Assembly: GCA_014801865.1 (NCBI GenBank) | Contig: JAAVDH010000039.1 | Location: forward strand, 3,657 to 67,656 | DNA: 64,000 nucleotides | Origin: Bacteroides sp. | GTDB lineage: Bacteria; Bacteroidota; Bacteroidia; Bacteroidales; Muribaculaceae | Reading direction: 5' to 3' | Part shown: positions 35,070 through 60,967 of the stretch, in pieces | How the letters are laid out: every line of letters begins with the position of its first letter | How positions within the stretch are numbered: the first letter of the stretch is position 1 | The notes under the pieces: generated by a model | The model's database searches: none | Seen by the model: the letters and a program-made list of their open reading frames with translations, nothing else | What the model was told of the DNA's origin: nothing | Made by a program: the position numbers and the translations under genes

Positions 35070-38000
35070 ATGAAGAGAGTGCGAATTCGTGTTATCTTTC
35101 TTGTACAGTTAGTATTGTTGGCTGCCATTTGCCTTGCTCTGCCGACGTATCTTTCGGCGGAGGGAATCCGTCATATCACTATGAAAGACGGACTGTCGAG
35201 CCGTCAGGTGTATGAACTTGAGGAAGATGCCGACGGATTTATATGGATGTACACCAATTCCGGACTTGAACGTTACGACGGTTATCGCTTCCGACATTAC
35301 TCCCTTGACGACAGCGAAGAGTCAAATGATCATTTGGCGTCGGCAACTACGATGCAGCTCGGAAATGACAGTTTGGTATGGGTTGCAATCAAATCGGGTG
35401 TGATTTATCGCTACGATAAGACTCTTGACCGATTTATTAAACAAATTGAGTTTGACGATAAGTCCATCGGTGTGTATCATTTCGCTATTTTGGACGATGA
35501 TGTGGTAGTTATCGGCACAAATAAGGGGGTATATATATGTGCTCCAGGAGAGACTCCGCGACGCATTGCGCTCGATGGCGCACTTGTGTCGGCAGTGGTG
35601 GCTGATGATGACGGAATCATATATGCAGGTACAGATAAAGGGGTCTACAGCATAGTATTAGGAGAGGGGAGTACCTCGAATAACAGAAGTGGAGGAGTCA
35701 CTTCACCGGGTAAAGCAACCAAACTAAAAGGCACGGAGGGGATATATGTCAAGTCGCTCGCCATTGCTTCGGGCCGACTGTACGTAGGTCCGTTTGCCGA
35801 TAATGTGTTTGCTATAGACCTGCGGAGCGGACGTAAGTGTATGTTGCCTTTCCGTACGCCTCCGATACCTGTAAATGCCATGACGGTGTATGAAGATGAC
35901 GGGCTGCTGATAGGTGTTGACGGTGCGGGAGTGTATATGATAGACTCGCGCGACGGACGTCTGATAAGGCATTACCGCGACGGAGACAACACCCGATATG
36001 AATTGTCGGGTAGCACCGTATCGGATATTCTTGTGGACCGTGACGGCGGAATATGGATTTCTACAAGCCACAGCGGAGTGAATTATCTCCCGTCGCATGA
36101 AAGCTCGCTGACGGTGCTTCGCCCCGAGCGTGGCAACAGTAACTCCATATTATCAAGCCACGTGAATGCTGTGTATGAGGATTCGTACGGTGAACGGTGG
36201 TTCGGTACAGACAAGGGCGTCAGCCGATATAATCCGTCCACGGGGCGCTGGAGACACTATCTGGAGAATCATGAGTATAGTGCCAATGTGGTGCTGACTA
36301 TCGGTGAGGATGCCTACGGCAATATCTGGGTAGGTTCTTACGGCGAGGGCGCTGCATGTATTGACCGTAACACTCATGATGTAAAGCATCTGCCCGAACT
36401 GTCAGCCGACGGCAAGAACGGCACGGGTACGCGCTATATATTCACCAGTTACTGCGACCGAGAGGGTAACGTGTGGCTCGGGGGTATCAACGGCCTTACT
36501 ACCAAGTATAATATCAAGGACAATACTTATAGGTATTATGACGAAGACTGTATAGCCCTCGCATGTCCGGGAAGAAACAATCATGTGATTCTTGGCGGGA
36601 ACAGGGGTATAGGAATATATGATCCGGCGGTGGATTCCGTGAGATGGAAGATGCAGTTTGACAGCATAGCCATACGCTATCCGGTAAGAAGCCTGCTGAT
36701 GGACACTATTAACGCGGAAGCGTGGATAGGCACTATGGGTGAGGGGCTGATACAGTATGATTATAAGACTGATAAGGTGCGTCGGTTTACAACCGCCGAC
36801 GGACTCAACTCAAATACCATATATTCGATACTGCGCGATAATATAGGTGGCACATGGATATGTACCGAGAGCGATATATACCGTTATAATCCCAAGACCG
36901 AGAGCCTGGCCCGATTTACCAACTTTGCCTCAGGCAAGAGAGACATAGATCAGCTGGCTTTCAATCCGGGAGGGTTTGTGGCCCGTAACGGAGATGTGCT
37001 TCTTGCCTCTCCCGAGGGGTGTATAGTTTTCAATCCCGAGAGTGACGCTATCAAACTGCCATTATCGCCGCTGATGTTTACCAATCTCATACTCAACGAT
37101 GAGGTAATGACTCCCGGAGTGAATGGGTCGCCGCTGTCAAAGAATATCAACCTGGTGGAGAGTCTGGAACTTGACCATAAATACAATAATATAGCCATTG
37201 ACTTTGCCGTAATCAATCTGCAGTCGCCTAACAGAGTCGACTACGAGTATATGCTCGAAGGCTACGACACGGAGTTTAAGAAGTCGGACGCTTCGCGACG
37301 AGCAAAATACTCGGCTCTTGACCCCGGCAAATACAAACTGATAGTCAGGGCGATAGACCTATACAGCAGCACTTGTATCGAGGAGCGTGAGCTTCCTGTC
37401 GTGATACGCAGTCCGTGGTGGCAGTCATGGTGGGCCAAACTCTCATACGTGGTGATAATACTCACTCTGATAGTACTCTGCATAGGGTATCTCCGCAATC
37501 GCCGCAGGGAGAAGAGAGTGGAGAACCAGATACGTACCTTTGCCAATATAGCCCACGACATACGTACCCCCATGTCTATGATCAAGGCTCCTCTTATCAA
37601 CGTGGAGCAGGAGCAGGGACTCTCCGAACAGGGCCGACGCAATCTCACCATAGCCCGTGCCGGCATAGAGAAAACCCTTAATATGCTCACGGCCATGCTG
37701 GAGTTGCCCGGTGGCAAAGTAGGCCGTGATAGTCTACAGATAGAGGTGTGTGATATAAGGAAATTCATCCGCAGTAAATATCATGAATTCATGTCGCTTG
37801 CCATGCTTAAGAATCTCGAACTGACCTCAGACATCGGTGACGACATGCCTGTGATGATAATGACAGATATTGACAAGCTCAATCATGTGGTAGACAATCT
37901 ACTGTCAAATGCCATAAAGTATACTTTTGCCGGGAAGATAGAAATCATAGTACGCAAGGTGACTGACAAGCGATGGAGTCTGTCAGTAAAGGACACCGGT

Positions 38001-39038
38001 ATAGGTATACCGAAAGTCGAAATCAAGCGAATATTCAATTATCGCCATCGCGGCAGTGAGGCCATAAGCAAGAATATACCCGGCACAGGTATGGGACTCC
38101 TGATTACCCGCCGCATAGTTCACGTCATGAGAGGTAAAATCATGTTTACGAGTCAGTCGGGTAAGGGTACCGAGTTTATGGTGGAGCTACCGCTGAATTA
38201 CGGTAAGAAATATCCCATGCCAGTATCTGAACCAATTGTCGAAGAGAATACAAGCGCTGAGGATGTGCGTGAGGAGGAGATGAATGACGGTCGTAATAGA
38301 ATATTCATCATAGATGATGACGCGGATATGCGCAGCTTCCTGCACACTACTCTCGGAGCGGAGTATGATGTAGTAGTGTTCAGTGACCCGGCGGAGTTGC
38401 TTGAACGTATACGCAAGGAGAGTCCCGACATGGTCATAGCCGATGTAATGATGCCCAAGCTCAGAGGCGATGAGATATGTCGTATAATCAAGACCGACAT
38501 GGCTACCAGTCATATCCCCGTGATACTGCTCTCGGGACTTACGGCGCGGCGTGACGTTGTGAGCGGTCTGGAGGCACACGCCGATGATTATATAGTGAAG
38601 CCTTTCGACCTGATACTGCTTAAAGCCCGCATACGCAATATCATAGAAAACCGCCGTAGTCTGAGCCGTCAGGTGCTTGCCGAGGATAGTAAGCCGGAGG
38701 AAGCTGAATTCTCCAGTGAGCTTGACCGCCAGTTTATGGTGACTCTCATGGAGAAACTCAACGAAAGGCTTGCCGACTCTGATTTCTCTGTGACAGACCT
38801 ATGCGCGGAGATGGGTATGAGCCGTACTTCGGTGTACAATAAGATACGTTCCATAACCGGTCAGTCGGTGAACGAATTTATAAGAATCGTAAGGCTCAAC
38901 AAAGCCAAGGAACTGCTCTCGTCAGGTCTGCATAACGTAAGCGAAGTGGCCTATATGGTCGGATTCGCAGACCCGAAATATTTCAGCACCTGCTTTAAGA
39001 AACAGTTTGGCGTCAGCCCCAGTAAATTCGGCAGTTAG
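35070..39038 (+). CDS. Hybrid two-component system (beta-propeller sensor, Y_Y_Y, HisKA, HATPase, REC, AraC HTH)
   Basis: Reg_prop repeats, TM helix, FANIAHDIRTP, NLLSNAIKYT, GTGMGL, ADVMMP and VGFADPKYFSTCFKKQFG; -7 element TAACTTTG at 34979. Confidence 0.96.
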   Translation: MKRVRIRVIFLVQLVLLAAICLALPTYLSAEGIRHITMKDGLSSRQVYELEEDADGFIWMYTNSGLERYDGYRFRHYSLDDSEESNDHLASATTMQLGNDSLVWVAIKSGVIYRYDKTLDRFIKQIEFDDKSIGVYHFAILDDDVVVIGTNKGVYICAPGETPRRIALDGALVSAVVADDDGIIYAGTDKGVYSIVLGEGSTSNNRSGGVTSPGKATKLKGTEGIYVKSLAIASGRLYVGPFADNVFAIDLRSGRKCMLPFRTPPIPVNAMTVYEDDGLLIGVDGAGVYMIDSRDGRLIRHYRDGDNTRYELSGSTVSDILVDRDGGIWISTSHSGVNYLPSHESSLTVLRPERGNSNSILSSHVNAVYEDSYGERWFGTDKGVSRYNPSTGRWRHYLENHEYSANVVLTIGEDAYGNIWVGSYGEGAACIDRNTHDVKHLPELSADGKNGTGTRYIFTSYCDREGNVWLGGINGLTTKYNIKDNTYRYYDEDCIALACPGRNNHVILGGNRGIGIYDPAVDSVRWKMQFDSIAIRYPVRSLLMDTINAEAWIGTMGEGLIQYDYKTDKVRRFTTADGLNSNTIYSILRDNIGGTWICTESDIYRYNPKTESLARFTNFASGKRDIDQLAFNPGGFVARNGDVLLASPEGCIVFNPESDAIKLPLSPLMFTNLILNDEVMTPGVNGSPLSKNINLVESLELDHKYNNIAIDFAVINLQSPNRVDYEYMLEGYDTEFKKSDASRRAKYSALDPGKYKLIVRAIDLYSSTCIEERELPVVIRSPWWQSWWAKLSYVVIILTLIVLCIGYLRNRRREKRVENQIRTFANIAHDIRTPMSMIKAPLINVEQEQGLSEQGRRNLTIARAGIEKTLNMLTAMLELPGGKVGRDSLQIEVCDIRKFIRSKYHEFMSLAMLKNLELTSDIGDDMPVMIMTDIDKLNHVVDNLLSNAIKYTFAGKIEIIVRKVTDKRWSLSVKDTGIGIPKVEIKRIFNYRHRGSEAISKNIPGTGMGLLITRRIVHVMRGKIMFTSQSGKGTEFMVELPLNYGKKYPMPVSEPIVEENTSAEDVREEEMNDGRNRIFIIDDDADMRSFLHTTLGAEYDVVVFSDPAELLERIRKESPDMVIADVMMPKLRGDEICRIIKTDMATSHIPVILLSGLTARRDVVSGLEAHADDYIVKPFDLILLKARIRNIIENRRSLSRQVLAEDSKPEEAEFSSELDRQFMVTLMEKLNERLADSDFSVTDLCAEMGMSRTSVYNKIRSITGQSVNEFIRIVRLNKAKELLSSGLHNVSEVAYMVGFADPKYFSTCFKKQFGVSPSKFGS

Positions 39039-39181: not shown

Positions 39182-40156
39182 ATGGACACGTATATTGGAA
39201 TTGATTTCGGCGGTACCAAACTCCTGATAGGGGAGGTGGACAACTGCGGACAGATTCTCGGACAGAAGATATATAGGACAGGGTATGTCAACCAGCAGGC
39301 TGCCGTAGAACTTATCAAGGAGTCTCTGACCGACTATCTCGCTACCGTAGGCACCGAAGGTCGTCAGCCCGTGGCTGTCGGCATCGGTATGATAGGTCGC
39401 GTAGACACTGCGGTCGGTAAGTGGATGCAGATAGACACCAACCGTAATTGCAGTATCAATCTTGCCCAAGAGATAAGCGATACCTTCGGTATGGACTGCT
39501 TCATCGCCAATGACGTGAAGAGCGCTACGGTGGCCGAACAGTGCTGGGGCAACGGGCTGAAGTCTGACAATTTCATATATATCAATATAGGTACGGGCAT
39601 AGCTGCCGGATGTGTGGTTGGTGGCCGGGTGATACTCGGTTCGCACTGCAACGCCGGTGAGGTGGGACATACCCAGGTTGGTGTGCACACGGGCGTGAGA
39701 TGCTGTTGCGGTCGCGAGGATTGTGTGGAGGCCATAGCTGCCGGTGTGGGTTTCGACAGTTGTGCTCGTCTGTTAGCTCCGGCTTATCCCGACTCTGCCC
39801 TTAAGATACCTACTGACGGCACCCGCGTAGATGTGCGTGTGGTATATGATCTCTACCGTAAGGGCGACGCGCTGTGCAGTGTGCTTGTGGAGAATGCAGC
39901 TACGGCTATCGCCAATCTGATAATGAATCTCGTGAGAGTGACTGACCCCGACACGGTTGTGCTCGGCGGCGGTATAGTCAGCGACCCCATGATGTATGAT
40001 ATGATTATGGAGCGTCTTCACGCCGGCACGATGCGTTTCGTGACCAATGGTGTGGTGCTTACCCACCTCAATCCCGCTCACATCGGGCTTCTCGGAGCGG
40101 CCGCTGTGGCTATGACGGAGTCAAAGAAGGTGATGGAAGAGGCCCTGGATTATTAA
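39182..40156 (+). CDS. ROK family sugar kinase
   Basis: GIDFGGTK, ANDV, GTGIAAG, AGEVGH and the zinc motif CCCGREDC; no HTH domain. Confidence 0.92.
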   Translation: MDTYIGIDFGGTKLLIGEVDNCGQILGQKIYRTGYVNQQAAVELIKESLTDYLATVGTEGRQPVAVGIGMIGRVDTAVGKWMQIDTNRNCSINLAQEISDTFGMDCFIANDVKSATVAEQCWGNGLKSDNFIYINIGTGIAAGCVVGGRVILGSHCNAGEVGHTQVGVHTGVRCCCGREDCVEAIAAGVGFDSCARLLAPAYPDSALKIPTDGTRVDVRVVYDLYRKGDALCSVLVENAATAIANLIMNLVRVTDPDTVVLGGGIVSDPMMYDMIMERLHAGTMRFVTNGVVLTHLNPAHIGLLGAAAVAMTESKKVMEEALDY

Positions 40157-40177: not shown

Positions 40178-40924
40178 ATGAAGATTACTGTAACGAACGA
40201 CGAAAGCGTATTTGACTGCACAGCGGCATCGCGCATAGTCAATCAGATTTGTGCTAAACCCTCGAGTGTTATCGGTCTGTCGACCGGACGCACTACGGGC
40301 AATATACATCGCCTTGTGTGCAAAATGCATGAAGAGGCGGACTTTGATGTGACCGATGTGACTTTCTTCGGTCTTGATGAGGTGACCAACGTAGATAGGG
40401 AATATAGCGGAGCTTGCTACAAAATGCTGCGCACAGAGATAATCGAGTCGCTCGGAGTGGATGAAGACCACTTCCTGATGCTCCCCACAAAGTCGGATGA
40501 TTTCGAGCGTGAATGCAGAGAATTTCGCTCGGAACTCAGCCGCAGAGGTGGTATAGACCTTCTTATATTGGGTCTTGGAGAGAATGGTCATCTTGGATTC
40601 AATCAGCCCGGTTCGCCTCTGAACGGCACGGCGTGGGTGGCTTCGATGGATGAGCGCCTTGAGGAGCGTATACGCCGTGAGACGGGTACTCCCGCTGAAA
40701 CGGATTTAGGCGGCGTGACTCTCGGTATCAGAGATATAATGCATGCCCGCAGGATAGTGCTCGTGGCCAAGGGTGAGAATAAGCGTGAGATTGTGAAGCG
40801 TATGCTCACCGGAGAGATAAGCAGTGAGTGCCCAGCTTCGGTGCTTCAGCTTCATCCCGACTGTGAGTTTCTGTTAGACGCCGCCGCGGCAGCAGACATC
40901 AATGTATGTACATTAAGAAATTAA
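40178..40924 (+). CDS. nagB: Glucosamine-6-phosphate deaminase-like protein
   Basis: GLSTGRT, GLDE, GLGENGHLGFNQPG, TLGI and PASVLQLH motifs. Confidence 0.88.
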   Translation: MKITVTNDESVFDCTAASRIVNQICAKPSSVIGLSTGRTTGNIHRLVCKMHEEADFDVTDVTFFGLDEVTNVDREYSGACYKMLRTEIIESLGVDEDHFLMLPTKSDDFERECREFRSELSRRGGIDLLILGLGENGHLGFNQPGSPLNGTAWVASMDERLEERIRRETGTPAETDLGGVTLGIRDIMHARRIVLVAKGENKREIVKRMLTGEISSECPASVLQLHPDCEFLLDAAAAADINVCTLRN

Positions 40925-40942: not shown

Positions 40943-42238
40943 ATGGAAAATGAAGCAAAAGCGAAGAGCGCGATAGCTATGCCTGATGAGGGCAAGAGTT
41001 ATGTGAGTGCTTTTCTTACAATGGTATTCCTGTTCTTTATCGTAGGGTTTCTTACGACAGTGAACACTCAGTTTCAGGCGCCGCTCAAGGCCGCTTTTCT
41101 CGGCGAAACCGGAGCGATGCAAAATACATTCGCCACGTTGATTACCTTCTCGTGGTTCTTGGCATATCCGGTATGTGGTTCGTTGGGCTCGCGATGGATC
41201 AATGCCGGGGGGTATAGATCAACTCTGGTGAAGGGATTAGGCATGATGGCCGCGGGGCTTATACTGTTTCTCCTGTCGGCGCAGAGCGCGGTGTCTATGC
41301 CCGGAGCGGGTATCTCCGTAGGCAGTTTCTTTGTGCCTCTGGGCTTCATGATCTTCCTCTTAGGGTCGTTTGTCACCGGAGGTAGCGTGACAGTGCTCCA
41401 GGTGGTTATCAATCCTTATCTGACGGCATGTCATGTCAAGGGCACTCAGGGGGTGCAGCGCATGGCTATCGGCGGCTCGGCCAATTCGATAGGTACGGCG
41501 ATAGCTCCTTACTTCGTCACGGGTGTAATATTCGGAGGCATGGCGCTTGACAGCGTATCGCTGGATGCCCTTATAGTACCTTTCGCGGTGCTGGCTTGCA
41601 GCATCATAGCTCTCGGAATATGGCTGCGCACAATCAATCTGCCCGACCTCAACGCCACCCGTAGCGAGAGTGACGAGAAACTGCCCCGCAGCGTATGGTC
41701 GTTCCGCCACCTGACTTTAGGTGTAGTGGCTATTTTCTTCTATGTCGGAGCCGAGGTATGTATAGGGGCCAATATCACTATGTATGCCCTTGAGCTGTCG
41801 CTTGAGTCTGTGGCTGTAATCACCACACTCTATTGGGTCGGTATTCTTGCCGGGCGTCTTGTAGGAAGCAGTCTCAGTACCGTGTCACCACGTATACAGC
41901 TTACAGTCACCACTGTAGGTGCTACTGTACTGACTATAGCCGCTATCGTTGCCGACAGTCCCTGGCTGCTTGCTTCGGTAGGTCTGTGCCACTCGATAAT
42001 GTGGGGTTGTATCTTCACTCTTGCGGTGAAGGGCTTGGGACGCTACACTACCGTGGCCTCGGGTGTGTTCATGATAGGTGTGGTAGGCGGTGCTGTCCTG
42101 CCCTTGCTTCAGGGTGTGTGGGCCGATATGGCCGGCAGCTGGCGCACCACATGGTGGATAGTAGTGGCGAGCGAACTGATAATGTTGTATTATGCCCTGA
42201 TAGGCAGTAAGATAAAAGACAATGAAATTACGAAATAA
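40943..42238 (+). CDS. MFS sugar:H+ symporter (FucP/GluP/NagP family)
   Basis: About 12 TM helices; LQVVINPY, IFFYVGAEV and GVVGGAVLP motifs. Confidence 0.9.
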   Translation: MENEAKAKSAIAMPDEGKSYVSAFLTMVFLFFIVGFLTTVNTQFQAPLKAAFLGETGAMQNTFATLITFSWFLAYPVCGSLGSRWINAGGYRSTLVKGLGMMAAGLILFLLSAQSAVSMPGAGISVGSFFVPLGFMIFLLGSFVTGGSVTVLQVVINPYLTACHVKGTQGVQRMAIGGSANSIGTAIAPYFVTGVIFGGMALDSVSLDALIVPFAVLACSIIALGIWLRTINLPDLNATRSESDEKLPRSVWSFRHLTLGVVAIFFYVGAEVCIGANITMYALELSLESVAVITTLYWVGILAGRLVGSSLSTVSPRIQLTVTTVGATVLTIAAIVADSPWLLASVGLCHSIMWGCIFTLAVKGLGRYTTVASGVFMIGVVGGAVLPLLQGVWADMAGSWRTTWWIVVASELIMLYYALIGSKIKDNEITK

Positions 42239-43937
42239 ATTATTCGCGGCGGCTTGCATAATGGCGAGTCTCGTAGGTTGTAAGAGTGCGGCAGACGCAC
42301 AGAATGATTATATAAAGGAAGATAAGGTCGTGGCGGCGTACGTGACCTCATGGTCAGACGTAATGCCTGATCCCGCGCTGCTGACGCATGTCAACTATGC
42401 TTTCGGGGGTGTGAACGAGACATTTGACGGTGTAAGCATAGCCAATGAGCCCCGCTTCGCTCAGATAGTGAACATCAAGAAGACCAAGCCCGAATTGAAG
42501 GTGCTCCTGTCAATAGGAGGGTGGGGCAGTGGCCGGTTCAGCGAAATGGCCGCAAACGACAGTCTGCGCAATTCATTTGCCAAGGACTGCGCACGTATAG
42601 TGAATGACTACGGTATAGACGGAATAGACATCGACTGGGAATATCCCGGAAGCAGTGCGGCGGGCATATCTTCGTCGGAGAATGATAAGGAGAACTTTAC
42701 CCTGCTCATGAGGGATATCCGCAGCGCTATAGGTGATGATAAGTTGCTGACACTGGCGAGTGCCTGTACCCCGGAGTATATTGATTTTCGTGCGGTAATG
42801 CCTTACGTGGACTTCGTGAATCTGATGACATACGACATGGGCAACGCCCCTCTGCACCATGCAGCGCTGTATCAGTCGGAGAATACTCCCGAAATGACTT
42901 GCGAGAGCTCGGTGAAGGCGCATATCGCAGCCGGTGTGCCGGCCGGAAGACTGGTGCTCGGTCTTCCTTTCTACGGCAAGGGCGCCGTGGGCGAGCATGG
43001 CGCTGACTATAGAAATATCACTGTGCCGGAGGGCGGGTCGATAGTATTCGACTCTGTAGCGATGGTGCCTTATGTAGCCGATGCTACAGGCAAGATGGTT
43101 CTTGGATTTGACAATGCAGAGTCGATTGCCGCCAAGTGTCGTTTTGTAGATGAGAATGGGCTGCTCGGTGCGATGTACTGGGATTATGCCGGAGATAATA
43201 ACGAGAAGGAATTGGCTACTACGGTGTATAATGCCATAAGTGGTCAGGAGGTATTGCCTCATATTCTGGTGCTGAATGAGGGAGGCGGTCAGCATGGTCC
43301 CTTCACGAAGGTGGCTATGGAGTGGCTTCGCGCTCAGGCTACGCAAAAGGGTTACCGCATCACGGAGCTGCGTAATGCCGGCCCTATCACGCGTGAGTAT
43401 CTCAAGGATTATCCTTTGGTGATACAGCTTGATTTCCCTCCTTACACATGGCCAGAAGAGGCTCAGGAGGCGTTTACAGATTATATCGATAATGGTAAGG
43501 GCTCGTGGATAGGTTTTCACCACGCGACGTTGCTCGGCGAGTTTGACGGATATCCGATGTGGGACTGGTTCTCGGATTTCATGGGCGGTGTACGTTTCCA
43601 AAACTATGTGGCGGCTCTGGCCGACGGCACAGTATGTGTGGAGGACTCGATTCATCCTGTGATGAAGGGGGTAGACCCGAAGTTTGTGCTTCGCGATGAT
43701 GAGTGGTATACCTATAATGTCTCGCCTCGTCAGAATGTGAAAGTGCTGGCCTCGGTAGATGAATCGACGTATACTCCCGATTCGGAAGTCAAAATGGGTG
43801 ATCATCCTGTGATATGGACTAATCCTGAGAAGAAAGCGCGCAATGTGTACTTCCAGTTTGGACATAGTCCGAAGCTGTTTGAGAGCGAAAACTTCACCCG
43901 ACTTTTCTCTAATGCTATAGATTGGGCAATCGAATAA
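42222..43937 (+). CDS. Lipoprotein GH18 chitinase-like enzyme fused to a C-terminal ThuA-like (class I GATase-fold) domain
   Basis: Lipobox LVGC; SIGGW, intact DGIDIDWEYP, MTYD; C-domain GFHHA...DEWY...DHPVIW...FGH. Confidence 0.92.
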   Translation: MKLRNKLFAAACIMASLVGCKSAADAQNDYIKEDKVVAAYVTSWSDVMPDPALLTHVNYAFGGVNETFDGVSIANEPRFAQIVNIKKTKPELKVLLSIGGWGSGRFSEMAANDSLRNSFAKDCARIVNDYGIDGIDIDWEYPGSSAAGISSSENDKENFTLLMRDIRSAIGDDKLLTLASACTPEYIDFRAVMPYVDFVNLMTYDMGNAPLHHAALYQSENTPEMTCESSVKAHIAAGVPAGRLVLGLPFYGKGAVGEHGADYRNITVPEGGSIVFDSVAMVPYVADATGKMVLGFDNAESIAAKCRFVDENGLLGAMYWDYAGDNNEKELATTVYNAISGQEVLPHILVLNEGGGQHGPFTKVAMEWLRAQATQKGYRITELRNAGPITREYLKDYPLVIQLDFPPYTWPEEAQEAFTDYIDNGKGSWIGFHHATLLGEFDGYPMWDWFSDFMGGVRFQNYVAALADGTVCVEDSIHPVMKGVDPKFVLRDDEWYTYNVSPRQNVKVLASVDESTYTPDSEVKMGDHPVIWTNPEKKARNVYFQFGHSPKLFESENFTRLFSNAIDWAIE

Positions 43938-44004
43938 GAAATACACAATTAATACATATATAAATTAGATTAGCGTTTAAATACTGAAACGATTGGTTAG
44001 TGAA

Positions 44005-52929: not shown

Positions 52930-52964
52930 AAACGAAAAAAACAAACAATATTTAAGCAATAGAT

Positions 52965-53774: not shown

Positions 53775-53779
53775 GAGAA

Positions 53780-55039
53780 ATGAATAAGGGAATTTCAGTT
53801 TTTACTATGGTCATATCACTCGCTACTGTCGCCTGCACCGGGGGCAGTGGCGAGTACGCCTCTTCGGAAAAGAACTTTCTGCATGTCGACGGGCATAATA
53901 TCGTAGACTCAAAGGGTGACACGTTCTATATCAAAGGTACCAATCTCGGCAATTGGCTCAACCCCGAGGGATATATGTTTGGCTTTGCCAAGATTAATTC
54001 TGCCCGCAAAATCAATGAGGCGCTGTGTGAACTCGTAGGACCTACCGAGGCAGCACGCTTCTGGCAGGAGTTTAAGGATAATTATATCACGTCAGCCGAC
54101 TTTGAGTTTATATCCTCGACAGGAGCCAACACGGTCAGAGTACCGTTTCACTACAAGCTCTTCACTAATGAGGACTACATGGGGCTTAATGATGCTGAAG
54201 AAGGTTTCCGCCGCCTTGACAGTTGCGTGGTGTGGGCGCGCAATAATAATCTGCGCCTTATACTGGATATGCACGACTGCCCCGGCGGTCAGACCGGCGA
54301 TAATATTGACGATAGCTATGGTTATCCATGGCTCATGACTGACACTGTGGCTCAGGAGCAGTTTATAGACATCTGGGCAAAGATAGCCGATTATTACGCC
54401 GACGAGGATGTGATACTCGGTTATGAGCTTGCCAACGAACCTGTGGCTACTTACTGGGAAGGTGCCGAACGCGACTCGCTCAATGCCGCCCTTGAACCAT
54501 TGTATAAGCGTGCTGTGGCTGAAATCCGTAAGCACGACGCCAATCATATAGTATTGTTAGGCGGTCCGCAGTGGAACAGCTATTTCGGTAATTTTACCGA
54601 CTGGACCTTTGATGATAACATCATGTATACCTGCCACAGATATGGCGGCGACGCAACACGTGAGGCCATCGACGAGTACATATCATTCCGTGATAAAACC
54701 AACCTACCTATGTATATGGGTGAGATCGGCCATAATACGGATGAATGGATGAGTAACTTTGTCGATGTAATGCGACAGAATAATATCGGTTACACTTTCT
54801 GGCCTTACAAGAAGATTGGCGACAGCTCCATGACCGGGGTACAGGCTCCTGAGGAATGGGGCAGTCTGGTGGAGTATGTAGAGGCTCCACGAACTTCTTA
54901 CGGAGAAATCCGTGAGGCCAGAAAACTTTGTTCTCAGCAGCAGGGCAGGGCATTGCTGAATGAATTTATAGAAAATGCCAAAGCCGAAAAAATGCTCAGA
55001 CACGATAACTACATATCGGCTATCCAACTCAATAAGTAA
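53780..55039 (+). CDS. Glycoside hydrolase family 5 lipoprotein
   Basis: Lipobox TVAC; GTNLGNWLNPEGYM, LDMH, NEP acid/base, GEIG nucleophile, WPYK. Confidence 0.92.
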   Translation: MNKGISVFTMVISLATVACTGGSGEYASSEKNFLHVDGHNIVDSKGDTFYIKGTNLGNWLNPEGYMFGFAKINSARKINEALCELVGPTEAARFWQEFKDNYITSADFEFISSTGANTVRVPFHYKLFTNEDYMGLNDAEEGFRRLDSCVVWARNNNLRLILDMHDCPGGQTGDNIDDSYGYPWLMTDTVAQEQFIDIWAKIADYYADEDVILGYELANEPVATYWEGAERDSLNAALEPLYKRAVAEIRKHDANHIVLLGGPQWNSYFGNFTDWTFDDNIMYTCHRYGGDATREAIDEYISFRDKTNLPMYMGEIGHNTDEWMSNFVDVMRQNNIGYTFWPYKKIGDSSMTGVQAPEEWGSLVEYVEAPRTSYGEIREARKLCSQQQGRALLNEFIENAKAEKMLRHDNYISAIQLNK

Positions 55040-55050
55040 GTTATTAGAAC

Positions 55051-57309
55051 ATGAAAACCAATCTTATCACTGCGGCACTCGTGGCGGCTATGTTTACGGC
55101 CACAGCATCTTTTGCCGATGTGCCTGCATATCTTGATGACTCTCTGCCGATAGAGGAGAGGGTGAATGACGCTTTGTCGAAAATGACGGTAGCTGAGAAG
55201 GTGGCTATCATCCATGCTCAGAGCAAATTCAGTTCTCCCGGTGTGCAACGTCTCGGCATACCAGGCGTATGGTGTACGGACGGCCCTCACGGTATTCGCC
55301 CCGATGTACTGTGGGACGAATGGGATCAGGCCGGCGCTACAAACGATTCGTGTGTGGCATTTCCAGCGCTGACCTGTCTCGCCGCCACATGGAATCCCGA
55401 GATGTCGTATCTCTATGGAAAGTCTATCGGTGAGGAAGCACGCTACAGAAACAAGAATGTGCTCCTCGGGCCGGGCGTTAATATCAACCGCACTCCTCTC
55501 AACGGACGTAATTTCGAGTACATGGGTGAGGACCCCTACCTGTCATCGCGTATAGTGGTGCCCTATATCAAGGGTGTGCAGGAGAATGGTGTCGCAGCGT
55601 GTGTCAAGCACTATGCTCTCAATAATCAGGAGGTGGATCGTGCGTTTGTCAATGTACTGGTCGATGACCGCACTCTTCACGAAATATATCTTCCTGCCTT
55701 TAAGGCGGCGGTGACCGAGGGCGAAGCCTGGGCCATCATGCCCGGATATAATAAGTATAATGGTGAACATGCGTGTGAAAATCCGGTGCTTCTGCTTGAC
55801 ATTCTTAAGGGAGACTGGGGATTTGACGGAGTAGCCATAAGTGACTGGGGAGCTGTGCATAACACAGATAAAGTGGCGCAGAGCGGACTGGATATGGAGT
55901 TCGGTTCGTGGACCAACGGTCTCAACTGGGGTGCGAGCAACGCTTATGACAATTACTATCTGGCCAAACCCTATGAGAAGATGATACTTGACGGCACACT
56001 CCCGATGGATGGCCTTGACGACAAGGCCCGCAGAGTGCTGAGACTGATAATGCGCACTGAGATGAACCGCCATCGTCCTTACGGCTCGCTCAATAGCGAT
56101 GAGCATTATGCCGCCGCACGTAAGATAGGCGGTGAGGGTATAGTGTTGTTGAAAAACCAGAACGACCTTCTGCCCGTCAGCTCCGAAGTCAGAAAGATAC
56201 TTGTAGTAGGGGAGAACGCCATAAAAATGATGACCGTAGGCGGAGGTTCTTCGTCGCTGAAAGTACAGCGTGAGATGCTTCCTCTTGACGGGATAAAGGC
56301 CAAGGCGGCCGACTGCGGTATAGAGGTGGCCTATGAGCGCGGCTATGTGGGTGATGTCACCGGAGAGTACAACGGCGTGACCACAGGTCAGAATCTCAAT
56401 GATGACCGTTCGGCCGAGCAGCTGATCGCCGATGCCGTTAAGGCAGCCAAGGAGGCTGATATGGTGATTTTTATCGGTGGACTTAATAAGGCTGATCATC
56501 AGAATGCAGAAGCAACCGACCGCGAGAGTTTCGCTCTACCCTACAATCAGGATCGTGTGATCGAGGCTCTTTACGAGGCCAATCCCCGTCTGGTGGTGAT
56601 GAATCTTACCGGCAACGCTTATTCGATGCCCTGGGTTAATAAGGTTCCGGCAATAGTTCAGGGATGGTATATCGGCTCTGAGGCGGGCAATGCCATTGCC
56701 GATGTGCTGTTTGGCGACGTGAATCCTTCCGGCAAACTTCCTATGACGTTTGCTAAGGAACTTAAGGATTATGCCGCTCATGCTGAGGCTGATTCAACGA
56801 TGTATCCCGGTGTAGGGGGCGATGTGATATATAAGGAGGGGTTGAACGTCGGCTACCGGTATACGGACCGCCTTAAGCCCTCGCGTATCAACTATGCTTT
56901 TGGCCACGGACTGAGTTATACCGACTTTAAGCTCGGTAAGCCGGAGTTGTCCGTCGCCGGAGATGAGAGTGACGTGAGATATACCGTGACTGTTCCCGTA
57001 ACGAATATCGGTGGCGTAGATGGCGCGGAGGTCGTTCAGGCGTATGTGCGCGATGTCAAGAGTAGCGTTGCCCGACCGGAGAAAGAGCTTAGGGCTTTTG
57101 CTAAGGTAAAGGTGGCTCCCGGACAGACCGAAGAGGCTGTTCTGACATTCGACCGCAACGCTTTTGCATACTATGACCCGGACGATGCGAAGTGGACTCT
57201 TGAAGCCGGCAAGTTTGAGATACTTATAGGTACGTCATCTGACAACATTGTGGCTAAAGTGCCGGTTACCGTCGGCAAGTCGCAGAAGTGGGCCGACTCT
57301 GAGCGCTAA
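55051..57309 (+). CDS. Glycoside hydrolase family 3 beta-glucosidase-like (with Fn3 domain)
   Basis: DGPHG, GRNFEYMGEDP, KHY, ISDWG nucleophile, PSGKLPMTF and FGHGLSYT motifs. Confidence 0.95.
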   Translation: MKTNLITAALVAAMFTATASFADVPAYLDDSLPIEERVNDALSKMTVAEKVAIIHAQSKFSSPGVQRLGIPGVWCTDGPHGIRPDVLWDEWDQAGATNDSCVAFPALTCLAATWNPEMSYLYGKSIGEEARYRNKNVLLGPGVNINRTPLNGRNFEYMGEDPYLSSRIVVPYIKGVQENGVAACVKHYALNNQEVDRAFVNVLVDDRTLHEIYLPAFKAAVTEGEAWAIMPGYNKYNGEHACENPVLLLDILKGDWGFDGVAISDWGAVHNTDKVAQSGLDMEFGSWTNGLNWGASNAYDNYYLAKPYEKMILDGTLPMDGLDDKARRVLRLIMRTEMNRHRPYGSLNSDEHYAAARKIGGEGIVLLKNQNDLLPVSSEVRKILVVGENAIKMMTVGGGSSSLKVQREMLPLDGIKAKAADCGIEVAYERGYVGDVTGEYNGVTTGQNLNDDRSAEQLIADAVKAAKEADMVIFIGGLNKADHQNAEATDRESFALPYNQDRVIEALYEANPRLVVMNLTGNAYSMPWVNKVPAIVQGWYIGSEAGNAIADVLFGDVNPSGKLPMTFAKELKDYAAHAEADSTMYPGVGGDVIYKEGLNVGYRYTDRLKPSRINYAFGHGLSYTDFKLGKPELSVAGDESDVRYTVTVPVTNIGGVDGAEVVQAYVRDVKSSVARPEKELRAFAKVKVAPGQTEEAVLTFDRNAFAYYDPDDAKWTLEAGKFEILIGTSSDNIVAKVPVTVGKSQKWADSER

Positions 57310-57390
57310 CTTACTTATTTGAAAGTAAACAATGAGTTAGTGAGGTTCAAACGATATTTTGTATTATCTTTGAGTGACTTTTTCGAGTGA

Positions 57391-57448
57391 TTTTTGCTCT
57401 ATGTATCAAGAGTGTGTTAAGTTATATAACTGATACATAGAGCAAAAA
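57391..57448. repeat. Perfect 18-bp inverted repeat upstream of the NagX-like gene
   Basis: TTTTTGCTCTATGTATCA-N22-TGATACATAGAGCAAAAA, preceded by TATCTTTG (-7-like) at 57365. Confidence 0.75.
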
Positions 57449-57574
57449 CCGCCTTAAATGAGATAACTGCCTTAAATAAATAAGTAAGTGAGAAAAATAA
57501 ATGAATATATAAAACGAAGTCATTTTATTGTTCAAGTATTTTTATTCACCTATAACTCTTAGAACTTACTTAGT

Positions 57575-58714
57575 ATGATACCCGATAAGAAGAAGAAAAG
57601 CAGATTGCTCTCGCTTGATGTCATGCGTGGCATCACGATAGCTGGAATGATATTGGTTAATAACCCCGGCACTTGGAGCGATATCTACGCCCCTCTACGT
57701 CATGCCGAGTGGCATGGCCTGACACCGACTGACCTCGTGTTTCCGTTCTTTATGTTCATCATGGGCGTGTCGACTTACATGTCGCTGCGCAAGTATGATT
57801 TCCGTTTGTCATGGGCTGCTGTGTCGAAGATAACGAGACGCACAGCGGTGATATTTCTCATCGGCCTTATTCTGGCATGGATAGGATTGCTTGTGGGAGG
57901 CATAGCTTCGGGAGCAGCGCTGATTGACGCAGCGCTGTCGTTTGACCATATAAGGATTCTCGGCGTGTTGCCCCGACTGGCGCTTGCCTATGGAGTGGCT
58001 TCACTGGTAGCATTGGCGTGTCGCAACAGGTATTTGCCTGTCGTGGCTGTAGGGCTGCTTGTTGTCTATAGTGTGATACTGATTTTTGGTAATGGATTCG
58101 CCTTCTCTGAGGACAATGTTATAGCTGTAGTCGATCGTTGTGTGCTGGGCGAAAACCACATGTATACCGACTGGGTAGGGGGTGTGCGACTTCATTTTGA
58201 CCCTGAGGGTCTGTTGGGTATCATTCCCTCTGTGGCTCATGTGCTGATAGGTTTCATGGTAGGAGAGATGCTTATGAGCGATGGTGACAACAGTCGCCGT
58301 GCGCTGAAGGTGCTTATACTCGGCACAAGCCTTACCTTCGCGGGACTTCTGCTGAGTTACGGTATTCCCGTAAATAAAAAGATATGGTCGCCTACGTTTG
58401 TGCTGACCACCTGTGGACTGGCTTCGTCGTTGCTCGGTCTGCTTATCTATGTGATAGATGTAAGGAAGCATGCCGGGTGGTGTCGGTTCTTCGAGGTGTT
58501 TGGCGTTAATCCGTTGGCGCTGTATGTGCTGGCCACGGTGCTGAGTATTTATCCCGGGTGGATGGTGCAGGGTCCGATTATGGAGTCATGTATCATACCT
58601 CTCTGCTGCGGAAATATGAAGCTCGCCTCGCTGGTATTTGCCCTCCTGTTTGTCGGTATAATATGGCTTGCAGGTCTGCCGCTCTATAAGCGTAGAATCT
58701 ATATAAAAATCTAA
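57575..58714 (+). CDS. nagX: Heparan-alpha-glucosaminide N-acetyltransferase-like membrane protein (NagX / DUF5009 type)
   Basis: RLLSLDVMRG, MILVNNPG, LRHAEWHG (conserved His), DLVFPFF, DPEGLL and NKKIWSP motifs. Confidence 0.88.
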   Translation: MIPDKKKKSRLLSLDVMRGITIAGMILVNNPGTWSDIYAPLRHAEWHGLTPTDLVFPFFMFIMGVSTYMSLRKYDFRLSWAAVSKITRRTAVIFLIGLILAWIGLLVGGIASGAALIDAALSFDHIRILGVLPRLALAYGVASLVALACRNRYLPVVAVGLLVVYSVILIFGNGFAFSEDNVIAVVDRCVLGENHMYTDWVGGVRLHFDPEGLLGIIPSVAHVLIGFMVGEMLMSDGDNSRRALKVLILGTSLTFAGLLLSYGIPVNKKIWSPTFVLTTCGLASSLLGLLIYVIDVRKHAGWCRFFEVFGVNPLALYVLATVLSIYPGWMVQGPIMESCIIPLCCGNMKLASLVFALLFVGIIWLAGLPLYKRRIYIKI

Positions 58715-58747
58715 TAACCAATTTTCTGATAACCAATCTTTGCAGTG

Positions 58748-60967
58748 ATGAAAAGTAACATGAAACATCTGGGCGTGGCTTTCATGATGGCTACGGCCGT
58801 AGGTGCTTCGGCCGAGACTGTGGTGACCTGGAGCACTTTGGGCAACTCTGTGACGGCTGATGGAAAGCCTGTGTATACTCAGCGCTTTACTATCAATAGT
58901 GACAAGAATTTTGCACGTCTTGCGTTTAATCAGTTTGAGACTGATAAACAGCCTGTAGATGCCTCCGATTCTATAATAGAGATAGTACCGAGCTATTATG
59001 CCATAAAGTCACCTAAGTTTGCCGATGCCAAGGGCAAGACCGTGGTGGTCGATATAGTTACATCCGGTACATTCTCAAATATCTGCTTCGCCCCCGACGG
59101 AGTTCATCTGGTGAACAATGACGGCACGACCTCACCGGTGGAAATGAAGTGGGATAATATCATCGAGTCGCCTGAAATGTATTCCAACGGCAACTTTAAC
59201 CGCATGCCTTACGGCGACGCTTTATTTCTTCTGAATGAGCAGCGCAATCGTGGCGAGCAATTGGGTGCATACGATATAATACCTTCTTTTAAGGAGGTAA
59301 GCTTGACCGATGGCGCACCTACGGATGCTTCGGCATGTGAGGTGACAATTGTTGAGACAGAGAATCCTCAGCCCGACTGGATGCAGATAACCGTTGAAGG
59401 CGGACGCATCACCGCTAAGACCAACAATAAGGCATTGGCCCGTACGCGTATCAACAACCTTCTCAGCAGGGGAGGCATGCTCCCTGCGGCTGTAATCACC
59501 GATTATCCCGACTTCGGCTACCGCGGACTGATGATAGACATAGCCCGTAATTATCAGTCGCCTGAGGAGATGGAGCGCATACTGCAACTGATGAGCCGTT
59601 ATGGTTTTAATGTGCTCCACTTCCATATTGCCGACGATGAGGCGTGGCGCCTTGAAATACCCGGCCTCCCTGAACTGACTGACGTAGGAGGACGCCGCGG
59701 ATATACGCTCGACGGTAAGGACTTCCTGCCACAGATTTATTCAGGCGACGGAAACCCCGCTACGACAGGCAACAGCTCAAATGGATATTTCACCCGCACC
59801 GACTTTATCAATCTTCTTAAGAAGGCCGATGAATTGGGGATAAGAGTGATACCCGAAATAGAATCGCCGGGCCACGCGAGAGCCGCTATCGTGGCTATGG
59901 AAAATCGCCTCAGAAACACCGGTGATGACACCTATCGCCTGATGGATCCCGATGACAAATCGGTATACTCTTCGGCGCAGGACTATCACGACAACGTTAT
60001 GAATCTGGCCATGCCCGGTCCGATGCTCTTCATGACCAAGGTAGGCGAGGAGATAAAGCGTATGTACAGTGATGCCGGAGTTGAACTTCCCGCAATTCAT
60101 ATCGGTGGCGATGAGGTGGCTATGGGCGCATGGAAAGGCTCACCTATAGCTCAGGCGTATATGGCCGACCACGGTATTACCAATGAGCGCGACCTCCATC
60201 TTATATACGTGCGTGATATCGTTAAGGCCTATGACAAGCTCGGCATACCCGTATCGGGATGGCAGGAGATAGCCGTGGGCCACGATGAAGAGTTTAACAA
60301 CGAAGTGCGCCCCTACATCTATAGCGTGAATTGCTGGAGCACCTTAGGTGGCGAAAGTTCAGTGCCGGCACAGTCTGCCACAGCAGGTTATCCCACGGTA
60401 TTGAGCAACGTAGACCGCTTCTACATGGACTTGGTATATAACTTCCATCCTCAGGAAAGAGGCCTTACATGGGGTGGCGCCGTTGATGAATTTAAGTCAC
60501 TCGGAGGTTATCCCAAAGAACTCTGTCAGGTTGACGAAAATAGCTTCAAGAATGTCATAGGACTGTCAGGTCAGTTATTCAGCGAAACCGTCCGTTCGCC
60601 TCAGATGCTTGAGTCTTACCTGCTGCCCAAGATGCTTGGTCTTGCTGAAAGAGCATGGAACATGGATACTACCTACACCGAACCACGCTTCAATGCTGCC
60701 GTCAACCGCGAGATGCCCGTATGGAATCGTGAGGGCTATAACTTCCACGTAGGCCTGCCGGGAATCACTGTCAGGGATGGCTACATCATAATGAACGCCC
60801 CCTATCCTGATGTCGAGATACGCTACACTCTCGACGGATCCGAACCCACAGCCGAATCGCCCCTCTATACCGATCCGATTCGCTACTACGGTCAGGACGT
60901 ACGAGCCCGTGCTTTCCTCCCCCAATACGGCAAACACTCCCTCACCACCATCTACCTTCCCAAATAA
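58748..60967 (+). CDS. GH20 beta-N-acetylhexosaminidase with C-terminal Fn3-associated/chitobiase domain
   Basis: YRGLMIDIAR, HIADDEAWR, PEIESPGH, HIGGDE catalytic pair, RYTLDGSEP. Confidence 0.95.
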   Translation: MKSNMKHLGVAFMMATAVGASAETVVTWSTLGNSVTADGKPVYTQRFTINSDKNFARLAFNQFETDKQPVDASDSIIEIVPSYYAIKSPKFADAKGKTVVVDIVTSGTFSNICFAPDGVHLVNNDGTTSPVEMKWDNIIESPEMYSNGNFNRMPYGDALFLLNEQRNRGEQLGAYDIIPSFKEVSLTDGAPTDASACEVTIVETENPQPDWMQITVEGGRITAKTNNKALARTRINNLLSRGGMLPAAVITDYPDFGYRGLMIDIARNYQSPEEMERILQLMSRYGFNVLHFHIADDEAWRLEIPGLPELTDVGGRRGYTLDGKDFLPQIYSGDGNPATTGNSSNGYFTRTDFINLLKKADELGIRVIPEIESPGHARAAIVAMENRLRNTGDDTYRLMDPDDKSVYSSAQDYHDNVMNLAMPGPMLFMTKVGEEIKRMYSDAGVELPAIHIGGDEVAMGAWKGSPIAQAYMADHGITNERDLHLIYVRDIVKAYDKLGIPVSGWQEIAVGHDEEFNNEVRPYIYSVNCWSTLGGESSVPAQSATAGYPTVLSNVDRFYMDLVYNFHPQERGLTWGGAVDEFKSLGGYPKELCQVDENSFKNVIGLSGQLFSETVRSPQMLESYLLPKMLGLAERAWNMDTTYTEPRFNAAVNREMPVWNREGYNFHVGLPGITVRDGYIIMNAPYPDVEIRYTLDGSEPTAESPLYTDPIRYYGQDVRARAFLPQYGKHSLTTIYLPK

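Follow-up and report, generated by a model that had tools for sequence, protein, structure and literature searches.

A Sus-like locus of a Muribaculaceae genome, its candidate role in chitin utilization and its ThuA-like proteins

The locus and its chitin-type genes

Which polysaccharide is used by the cluster of genes at positions 35070–60967 of a 64,000-nt stretch of DNA from Bacteroides sp. (Muribaculaceae)? This stretch, referred to here as the window, covers positions 3,657 to 67,656 of contig JAAVDH010000039.1 (assembly GCA_014801865.1), and coordinates below are counted from its first letter unless another contig is named. The cluster comprises 14 open reading frames (ORFs), all on the + strand, and the start of the first and the end of the last match the interval limits. 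By gene content it is a Sus-like polysaccharide utilization locus (PUL), with adjacent susC and susD genes, six glycoside hydrolase (GH) genes and a gene for a hybrid two-component system (HTCS) regulator on one strand. The explanation that we favour, with a confidence modestly above even, is an HTCS-controlled SusC/SusD PUL for chitin or partly deacetylated chitin, as found together with beta-1,3/1,6-glucan in fungal walls. The new element of the locus is a pair of ThuA-like paralogues, here called ThuA_A and ThuA_B, for which all combinations of fusion with GH18, with GH9 and with one another occur (fusions are marked ~ below).

Families of the 14 products were assigned with Pfam and NCBIfam, catalytic motifs and N-termini were taken from the translated products, and the substrate specificities, localisations and regulation given below are predictions from families, motifs, synteny, fusions and fold similarities. 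All families named in a preliminary description of this DNA were recovered in Pfam or NCBIfam, apart from the surface glycan-binding protein (SGBP), which was recovered by fold instead, and the catalytic motifs that it had called intact were found in GH18, GH20, GH9, GH5 and GH3. Its gene order is corrected in one place, as GH5 lies after the stand-alone ThuA gene and not beside GH18. We propose that the genes can be divided into four modules. The ROK kinase, the NagB-like protein, the major facilitator superfamily (MFS) transporter and GH9 would form a glucosamine-oligomer catabolic unit; the GH18 chitinase would act with the fused ThuA_A and with ThuA_B; a glucan-type SusC/SusD/SGBP-B set would work with the GH5 lipoprotein and the GH3 beta-glucosidase; and a NagX-like protein with GH20 may form the last module, the two being neighbours in the window only.

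In the proposed route the GH18~ThuA_A and GH5 lipoproteins would cut the polymers, SusD and the SGBP-like protein would hold the oligosaccharides, and SusC would import them. GH18 acting on partly deacetylated chitin would leave oligomers with either glucosamine (GlcN) or N-acetylglucosamine (GlcNAc) at their non-reducing ends; in the periplasm GH9 would take the non-reducing-end GlcN, GH20 the GlcNAc and GH3 the glucose. The monomers would then be imported by the MFS transporter, GlcN would be converted to fructose-6-phosphate by the ROK kinase and the NagB-like enzyme, and the NagX-like protein may N-acetylate GlcN. The HTCS (1322 aa, 35070–39038; Pfam Reg_prop, Y_Y_Y, HisKA, HATPase_c, Response_reg and HTH_18) would sense a released oligosaccharide. 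Read by eye, the N-termini of GH18~ThuA_A, SusD, the SGBP-like protein and GH5 carry lipoprotein-type Cys signals, and those of GH3, GH20 and ThuA_B resemble signal-peptidase-I signals.

Much of this gene order recurs in other genomes. A locus scan with the GH18~ThuA fusion protein returned 101 relatives, and 80 loci were kept. Seven loci are colinear with the window from HTCS to ThuA_B at 46–79% identity, in the order HTCS-ROK-NagB-MFS-GH18~ThuA-SusC-SusD-SGBP-GH9-ThuA; the HTCS holds the same position in all seven (46–50% identity), and in two of these genomes GH5-GH3 stand directly downstream, after an extra GH3. Two Dysgonomonas genomes carry GH5-GH3-ROK-NagB-MFS-GH18-GH9-ThuA_A-ThuA_B without SusC/D. 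The cultured B. stercorirosoris, B. oleiciplenus and B. cutis have HTCS-ROK-NagB-MFS-GH18~ThuA_A, and in B. rodentium GH9 and ThuA_B lie beside this set. The locus type was found in metagenome-assembled genomes (MAGs) labelled Muribaculaceae, in cultured Bacteroides, and in Alistipes, rumen Prevotellaceae and Dysgonomonas, and titles of the closest loci elsewhere name, for example, Muribaculaceae or Bacteroidales MAGs, with rodents, deer and other animals as their sources. The enzyme set, previously described as unusual, is therefore better regarded as a widespread module that is conserved in related loci.

The GH18~ThuA_A lipoprotein (42222–43937; Pfam GH18 6e-67, ThuA 2e-41) consists of a GH18 domain at about residues 37–345 and of ThuA_A at residues 346–571 (nt 43257–43934), and its DxxDxDxE motif reads DGIDIDWE (residues 133–140, nt 42618–42641). 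Its best PDB matches, among 140 at E <= 1e-5, are chitinases led by 5GZU (4e-79), and in NCBIfam the ChiD model from Serratia scores 168 bits against 30 bits for Endo H; the GH18 domain is classed as chitinase-type by these comparisons. A weak Pfam match to the EndoS TIM barrel reaches 26.4 bits, with a cut-off of 27. The strong matches also include 6TSB and 6T9M, which are labelled 'Peroxiredoxin'; the guess that these are domains of Flavobacterium johnsoniae ChiA was dropped, as the part of PMC7426924 consulted holds no mention of them.

At the other end of the locus, GH20 (58745–60967; Pfam GH20 3e-71) has a signal peptide and a CHB_HEX_C tail. The H-x-G-G-D-E motif of its family (as defined in PMC7426924) reads HIGGDE in the window enzyme (residues 452–457, nt 60098–60115), and the nearest PDB entries, 9JOQ (9e-79) and the Serratia chitobiase 1QBA (9e-59), place it closest to chitobiases, so that it is classed as chitobiase-type by similarity. 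Directly before it lies a NagX/HGSNAT-like membrane protein of an acetyltransferase family (57575–58714), which passes Pfam HGSNAT_cat (32.1 bits against a cut-off of 22) and stays below the cut-off of NCBIfam NagX (NF046061; 132.1 against 480). The two genes are adjacent and co-oriented in the window and are not conserved members of this locus type, a correction to the preliminary description. In a same-genus relative the locus stops at GH3, and in four relatives a 44–45% identical GH20 lies upstream of the HTCS instead. Among the 80 best NagX loci, GH20 lies within 7 kb in two and a distant GH18-like match (35–36%) in two, and no close relative of a locus gene was found within 7 kb; the flanks of NagX in these 80 other genomes have nothing in common with those in the window.

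The GH9 clade and the amino-sugar genes

Is a deacetylated component part of the target as well? The GH9 enzyme (50563–52929) bears on this point. About 200 residues without a Pfam match are followed by a CelD_N immunoglobulin (Ig)-like domain and then by the GH9 domain, and the motifs GGWHDAGD (DAGD at nt 51577–51588) and C-terminal YKEV (52822–52833) are both invariant in 17 clade members; the Glu of YKEV is the presumed catalytic acid. The N-terminus of the window protein is atypical and shorter than that of homologues, in which an ordinary signal peptide precedes a conserved SGY(I/L)HxPL stretch. Residues 1–200 (50563–51160) are also conserved in a ThuA fusion protein, P0004, with an alignment that starts at residue 33.

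In the PDB, the Vibrionaceae exo-GH9 group (3H7L, 6GDT and 5DGQ) provides two of the three best matches of the window GH9 and the fourth, at E values from 7e-11 to 6e-8 and about 44 bits, over partial ranges that leave the central region unaligned. These nearest solved relatives, VC0615, PBPRA0520 and VP2484 of the chitin catabolic cascade, share with the window enzyme the N-terminal Ig/Fn3-like domain and the link to amino-sugar genes; according to the consulted part of PMC6096475, (GlcN)2 is a far better substrate for them than cellobiose, and (GlcNAc)2 is left uncut. The window GH9 differs from VC0615 in its extra N-terminal stretch of about 200 aa and in having DAGD rather than DASGD.

Loci were also selected by GH9 only, with an alignment of the 17-member clade; this gave 503 relatives, from which 66 distinct loci were kept, and neighbours were recorded within 10 kb. 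Where GH9 is at least 50% identical to that of the window (21 loci), a NagB-like gene is found in 15, ROK in 14, a ThuA of any kind in 15 and GH18 in 9. At 40–49% identity (nine loci) a NagB-like gene is present in four and ROK in two, with no ThuA and no GH18 in any of them, and this group includes Bacillota, Clostridiales and Ruminococcus MAGs. Below 40% (35 loci) neither a NagB-like gene nor any ThuA was recorded. Taken at 40% identity or more, 19 of 30 loci have a NagB-like gene nearby and 16 of 30 have ROK. A Treponema locus (GH9 50% identical) contains ROK, a NagB-like gene, GH9, an unknown protein and a weak ThuA, with no GH18. A GH9 that travels across phyla with a kinase and a glucosamine-6-phosphate deaminase-type gene, and without NagA, is best explained as glucosamine-releasing, which in turn would point to a deacetylated-chitin component in the target. 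Genomic context supports the earlier idea of a deacetylated-chitin target better than PDB similarity does; it defines a distinct GH9 clade that probably releases glucosamine, and we propose that the window GH9 is an exo-beta-glucosaminidase.

Some of the remoter GH9 loci have features of their own. Listeria riparia FSL S10-1204 (GH9 39% identical; locus L244) has ROK, GH9, PTS EIIC and then a gene for a SIS-domain protein; a LacI regulator and a GH3 are close by, and the locus appears to be a Firmicute equivalent of the Vibrio chitobiose-type system. A protein of about 300 aa without a Pfam match adjoins GH9 in a metagenome chromosome (L242:11781–12692), a Treponema MAG (L232:5041–6036) and a Clostridiales MAG (L243:11691–12563, – strand); the three are 41–60% identical to one another, their GKPVYxDK stretch recalls, by eye, Gfo/Idh/MocA oxidoreductases, and neither the window nor any Bacteroidales locus examined contains this protein. 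A comparison by hhalign of the ThuA_B profile with the GH9-neighbour proteins of two non-Bacteroidota loci found no relation.

The amino-sugar genes of the window lie between HTCS and GH18. The ROK-family kinase (39182–40156; Pfam ROK 2e-50) has no signal peptide and is a candidate glucosamine, GlcNAc or glucose kinase. It is followed by a 248-aa NagB/AgaI-like sugar-phosphate deaminase or isomerase (40178–40924; Pfam Glucosamine_iso, GLGENGH motif), which scores 177.6 bits with NF001684 (cut-off 326) and 160 with the AgaI-type model (cut-off 271). The MFS sugar transporter (40943–42238) belongs to the GluP/NagP/FucP group and reaches 154 bits with TIGR01272 gluP and 132 with NagP NF046060, each under its own cut-off.

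The preliminary description had also stressed that NagA and CE4 deacetylases are lacking. Indeed, no NagA, CE4 or PIG-L domain was found by Pfam or NCBIfam among the 14 products, and that part of the statement stands; as an argument it carries no weight. The host assembly (1.88 Mb in 46 contigs) is 70.8% complete, and NagA was not found in it; one weak CE4 match was. In the same genus NagA exceeds its cut-off in 9 of 24 genomes and is missing from several that are 98–99% complete. Moreover, another host contig (C27:12096–14084; L215:597–2585) encodes a 662-aa protein with 914 bits to NF002557, 'glucosamine-6-phosphate deaminase-like protein', and a PIG-L domain match, and this PIG-L/NagB-like protein might replace NagA. 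Because the assembly is incomplete, NagA is patchy in the genus and the 662-aa protein lies elsewhere in the genome, the absence of NagA is uninformative, and we rejected the argument that no NagA means a GlcN-only route.

The ThuA-like paralogues

What do the ThuA-like proteins add to such a system? ThuA_B is a stand-alone protein of 269 aa with a signal peptide (52965–53774; Pfam ThuA 2e-30), and its likeness to PDB 4JQS, a ThuA-like protein of B. uniformis, reaches 7e-118. ThuA_A and ThuA_B are paralogues of about 30% identity and the sole ThuA genes in the host assembly; both pass the gathering score of Pfam ThuA (PF06283; 143.1 and 107.2 bits, respectively, against 33.4). The fused partners vary among related loci. 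In the 80 loci of the fusion-based scan, which were chosen by likeness to GH18~ThuA and are therefore a biased sample, GH18~ThuA_A occurs in 40, GH18~ThuA_B in five, GH18~ThuA_A~ThuA_B in three, and ThuA_A~ThuA_B without GH18 in the same ORF in seven; ThuA_B directly follows GH9 in 16 of the 21 loci that have both. In four Alistipes MAGs (L019, L020, L023 and L053), proteins of about 800 aa hold GH18, ThuA_A and ThuA_B in one reading frame.

A profile search of 1.84 billion representative proteins gave 127 clusters at E <= 1e-30, and 21 hits, mostly the longest, were chosen for a Pfam scan. Among these 21, three have ThuA fused with CelD_N and GH9, one with GH18, two with other beta-propellers and one with an FGE-sulfatase-type domain; the ThuA_A~GH9 fusions are P0004, P0006 and P0117, and over 744 aa the window GH9 shares 47% identity with its counterpart in P0004. 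Eight of the 21 combine ThuA with a PQQ-type glucose/sorbosone dehydrogenase, and five of these also have CBM6, PKD or malectin. Six giant secreted proteins of 1656–2456 aa (P0042, P0044, P0060, P0079, P0144 and P0150) carry one or two ThuA domains and a PQQ-type dehydrogenase propeller, mostly with CBM6, PKD, malectin or DUF1349; such giants form a separate ThuA context.

The model of ThuA_A (predicted local distance difference test, pLDDT, 94) superposes on 4JQS with a TM-score of 0.86; next come other ThuA-like proteins, glutamine amidotransferases and GH42 enzymes, the last by their middle domain. ThuA_A and ThuA_B have invariant His, Asp, Glu, Tyr and Trp in common, and further invariant His residues occur in ThuA_A only (the invariant His of the fusion protein include H433 and H548); these counts were made in families with a mean column identity of 67–70%, so that many columns are invariant by descent alone. 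An invariant GFH His lies at a strand-helix junction in the ThuA_A model. Class I amidotransferases have their nucleophilic Cys at the same strand-helix junction. An alignment by hhalign of the ThuA_A profile with the amidotransferase domain of the host CTP synthase was not meaningful (probability 0.2), and the placement of the His consequently rests on the secondary structure of the model and on general knowledge of the fold.

The ThuA of the rhizobial thuEFGKAB trehalose operon belongs to PF06283. The window proteins resemble it in passing the PF06283 gathering score, and they share the class I amidotransferase-like fold of solved ThuA-like proteins. In contrast to rhizobial thuAB, no ThuB-type Gfo/Idh/MocA partner was found in the window locus by Pfam, and the window-type ThuA is predicted to be secreted, is fused to GH18 or GH9, and forms a small subfamily of 127 clusters. 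The fold has also been met in other proteins: it is the closest structural relative of the domain that binds glycan in a levan SGBP (bioRxiv 10.1101/2022.08.15.503959, in the part consulted) and of the N-terminal domain of Agd3, which a section title of that paper calls a unique carbohydrate-binding module (PMC7229062, likewise), and the consulted part of PMC7686228 describes a ThuA-like core in a metal-dependent formamidase domain. In the full-text literature searched (most subscription journals, PULDB, dbCAN and supplements lie outside it) we found no biochemical activity for any ThuA and no description of GH18-ThuA fusions.

The fusions to GH18 and GH9 suggest that the ThuA-like proteins act on, or bind, chitin-derived glycans. 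An accessory enzyme is the role to which we lean, at a confidence somewhat short of even; a glycan-binding module is a weaker but substantial candidate, and some other role would be rather unlikely.

The glucan-type genes, the likely target and its rivals

Why are glucan-type genes found beside those for chitin? The SusC-type TonB-dependent transporter (44312–47470; TIGR04056 903 bits, cut-off 368) is followed after 8 bp by the SusD-like lipoprotein (47479–49260; Pfam SusD-like_3 and SusD_RagB), whose nearest PDB entries are 9SJE (2.8e-31), 7KV4 (2e-28) and 6GCZ (2.8e-25). The second of these is BfSGBP-A, encoded in the beta(1,3)-glucan utilization locus (1,3GUL) of B. fluxus (PMC7974029). The 319-aa lipoprotein downstream of SusD (49286–50245) has no Pfam or NCBIfam match; its model (pLDDT 72) has an N-terminal Ig-like and a C-terminal beta-rich domain, and all four Foldseek matches at E <= 0.001 are to BfSGBP-B of the same locus (7KV5–7; best 5e-8, TM-score 0.39–0.45), in agreement with the earlier call of an SGBP. 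According to the consulted part of PMC7974029, BfSGBP-B is built as PKD::beta-barrel, and its ligands are laminari- and mixed-linkage oligosaccharides. These matches show that the uptake parts descend from glucan systems; their ligands cannot be taken from them.

Two further enzymes have glucan-type relatives. GH3 of the BglX type (55051–57309; signal peptide, SDW motif) is a predicted beta-glucosidase that matches PDB 8VA7 at 957 bits (5.9e-287). From the neighbours 7MS2 and 5WAB in the match list we infer that 8VA7 is CapGH3a, one of two GH3s of a beta-glucan locus of capybara-gut Alloprevotella, which prefers beta-1,6 disaccharides and also cuts beta-1,3 and beta-1,4 linkages (PMC11471779, in the part consulted). 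The GH5 lipoprotein (53780–55039; Pfam Cellulase 1e-35, motifs NEP and GEIG) is of beta-glucanase or beta-glycosidase type; its nearest PDB entry is 9KU5 ('putative beta-xylosidase GE32'), followed by CelC and by a Candida exo-beta-1,3-glucanase. The literature searched gave no relevant paper on 9KU5. The preliminary description had noted that some GH5 enzymes are chitosanases or glucanases; no chitosanase is named among the 58 PDB matches of the window GH5. In each relative that was examined, GH5 has GH3 as its direct neighbour. The B. stercorirosoris pair (L090:11461–18291) is preceded by a DUF6377 protein and a GH30, lies apart from the GH18~ThuA cluster with no SusC related to that of the window, and may be a small beta-1,6-glucan-type unit. 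The presence of beta-glucan-like SusD, SGBP-like protein, GH3 and GH5 beside the chitin genes suggests a chitin-glucan, that is, a fungal-wall, target.

Known systems offer parts of this picture. Like the window locus, the chitin utilization locus (ChiUL) of F. johnsoniae comes from a member of the Bacteroidota and combines SusC/SusD with GH18 and with a GH20 chitobiase in the periplasm; surface cleavage is followed by import and periplasmic trimming (PMC5127042, PMC7426924). It differs in having two SusC/D pairs, a 158-kDa two-domain ChiA and ChiB, and the consulted part of PMC7426924 does not mention GH9, ThuA-like, GH5 or BglX-type GH3 parts, all four of which are present in the window. Its SusD proteins CusDI and CusDII (5J90, 5J5U) are absent from the 26 PDB matches of the window SusD at E <= 0.001, so the window SusD is not of the CusD type by this comparison. 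The best conceptual precedent for a chitin-plus-glucan target is the locus for use of fungal cell walls (FCWUL) of Chitinophaga pinensis, where chitinases, beta-glucan degradation and a glucan-type SusD are combined in one locus (PMC10449523, in the part consulted). Unlike the window locus, it comes from soil and includes a beta-1,3-glucanase with appended carbohydrate-binding modules (CBMs), of a family that was not found in the window locus; the latter adds a glucosamine module made up of GH9, ROK and NagB, together with the ThuA-like proteins. The 1,3GUL of B. fluxus is similar in its SusD relative, its BfSGBP-B fold and its periplasmic GH3 (PMC7974029), whereas the window locus has no GH16 or GH158 endo-glucanase in Pfam and carries chitin and amino-sugar genes.

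The chitin-glucan target is partly supported by GH18, GH20, the context of GH9 and the glucan-like SusD, SGBP, GH3 and GH5, and so by sequence and context only. Several observations weigh against it. The NagB-like protein, the ROK kinase and the MFS transporter all stay below the NCBIfam equivalog cut-offs, and the NagX-like gene and GH20 are, as said, local neighbours. The top SusD match, 9SJE, is a SusD of the B. thetaiotaomicron dextran utilisome, an alpha-glucan system, and the SGBP-like protein is 17–18% identical to BfSGBP-B. Pfam found no endo-beta-1,3-glucanase of the GH16, GH158 or GH17 type among the 14 products, a surface role that GH5 might fill, and a clear GH5-GH3 orthologue (GH5 54% identical, L233) is near just one of 65 GH9-selected loci, so the glucan module is an add-on in a subset of genomes. 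The GH9 match to characterised exo-glucosaminidases is weak (44 bits), and these enzymes hydrolyse beta-glucosides too (PMC6096475), so that GH9 could belong to the glucan side. Finally, the full GH18~ThuA fusion is found in one of 24 same-genus species (63% identity), with a GH18-only homologue in 11 others, which makes the locus an accessory trait. A rival would be a primarily beta-glucan locus of 1,3GUL-like descent, with laminarin- or pustulan-type import, with GH5, GH3 and GH9 acting on beta-glucosides, and with a neighbouring amino-sugar operon joined by chance. In its favour, the SusD and SGBP-like proteins are nearest to those of the B. fluxus 1,3GUL, GH3 is very close to a characterised beta-glucosidase, exo-GH9s hydrolyse cello-oligosaccharides too (PMC6096475), and in the C. 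pinensis locus, which is mostly chitinolytic, the SusD binds beta-1,3-glucan (PMC10449523). A strong terminator-like hairpin at 44005–44032 (+; 10-bp stem with seven G-C pairs and a T run), in the gap between GH18~ThuA_A and SusC, also divides ROK-NagB-MFS-GH18~ThuA_A from SusC onward; it is the strongest of 15 such sites in 42000–61800, where shuffled sequences average 14.1, so that their total is not raised. We nevertheless regard this beta-glucan reading as improbable, for the order from HTCS to ThuA is kept in seven loci, GH9 is accompanied by NagB and ROK in several phyla, and also by GH18 and ThuA, in the absence of SusC/D, and no endo-beta-1,3-glucanase family typical of 1,3GULs was found by Pfam among the 14 products.

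GH18 chemistry requires GlcNAc at the -1 subsite, and the characterised exo-GH9s spare (GlcNAc)2 (PMC6096475), so that between the two enzymes a step is missing unless the substrate has been deacetylated beforehand. This leads to a pathway in which deacetylation comes first: ThuA_A and ThuA_B would be a new chito-oligosaccharide N-deacetylase, or another amidase, that makes GlcN ends for GH9, and the core ROK-NagB-MFS-GH18-GH9-ThuA-ThuA would be a NagA-independent route from chitin to fructose-6-phosphate in gut and rumen Bacteroidota. The archaeal route of chitinase, deacetylase and exo-glucosaminidase is an analogue. ThuA domains fused to GH18 and to GH9, the usual place of ThuA_B next after GH9, its stand-alone secreted form, which would be unusual for a pure binding module, and a locus in which NagA, CE4 and PIG-L domains were not found all agree with this pathway, as would the invariant His/Asp/Glu/Tyr common to both paralogues, the modelled GFH His at the nucleophile position, and a fold class that includes amidotransferases and the ThuA-like formamidase core (PMC7686228). 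On the other hand, a demonstrated amidase activity of ThuA was not found in the literature searched, the same fold binds glycans in the levan SGBP and Agd3, and for the distant ThuA domains fused to PQQ sugar dehydrogenases and CBMs binding or redox roles fit better; partly deacetylated chitin requires no deacetylase, the GH20 and NagX of the window point towards GlcNAc instead, and descent may account for many of the invariant residues. We therefore hold this pathway to be unlikely, though a little less so than the beta-glucan reading, and give the same low credence to the idea that ThuA_A and ThuA_B are founders of a new carbohydrate-active enzyme family, a secreted N-deacetylase or another activity that modifies amides or sugars, built on a class I amidotransferase-like fold in which His replaces the nucleophilic Cys, and coupling GH18 to GH9. 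The pairing of GH18 with GH20 is common in Bacteroides N-glycan loci, and together with the EndoS match just under its cut-off it could suggest a locus for host or dietary N-glycans, with GH18 as an endo-beta-N-acetylglucosaminidase and GH20 and GH3 trimming. This reading was rejected on the chitinase-versus-Endo H scores and is very improbable: the top PDB matches of GH18 are all chitinases or chitinase-like, Pfam found no mannosidase, sialidase, fucosidase or galactosidase family among the 14 products, and the linkage of GH9, ROK and NagB would be left unexplained.

The limits of the locus are correct, as judged from its flanking genes in Pfam: upstream lie genes for a histidyl-tRNA synthetase and for an Asp-Al_Ex permease, and downstream one for a UPF0047 protein. 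Further upstream, a choloylglycine hydrolase-family (CBAH) gene at 30452–31543 (– strand) fits a gut habitat. The G+C content is 0.37–0.40 at 2001–6000 and 62001–64000 against about 0.50 elsewhere in the window, and these parts may be foreign or mobile DNA.

Chitin loci (the F. johnsoniae ChiUL) and a chitin-plus-glucan locus (the C. pinensis FCWUL) are already known, and what sets the window locus apart from them is its glucosamine module of GH9, ROK and NagB, along with the two ThuA-like proteins. No gut Bacteroidales chitin locus of this make-up, and no mechanistically described chitin-utilization locus from gut Bacteroidales, was found in the literature delimited above. It had been suggested that the system serves for eating fungal or insect walls; sequence cannot tell a fungal from an insect source. 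Fungal and insect chitin reaches the gut of rodents, ruminants and people, and the spread of the favoured chitin-type locus across Muribaculaceae, Bacteroides, Alistipes, Prevotellaceae and Dysgonomonas offers a testable route by which chitin, chitosan and fungal walls could be used in the gut. The locus type also provides a first strong genomic lead to what ThuA-like proteins do; of these, 4JQS and 4E5V are solved structural-genomics targets without an assigned function. If the pathway that begins with deacetylation were true, it would mean a NagA-independent, archaeal-like way of using chitin in gut and rumen Bacteroidota.

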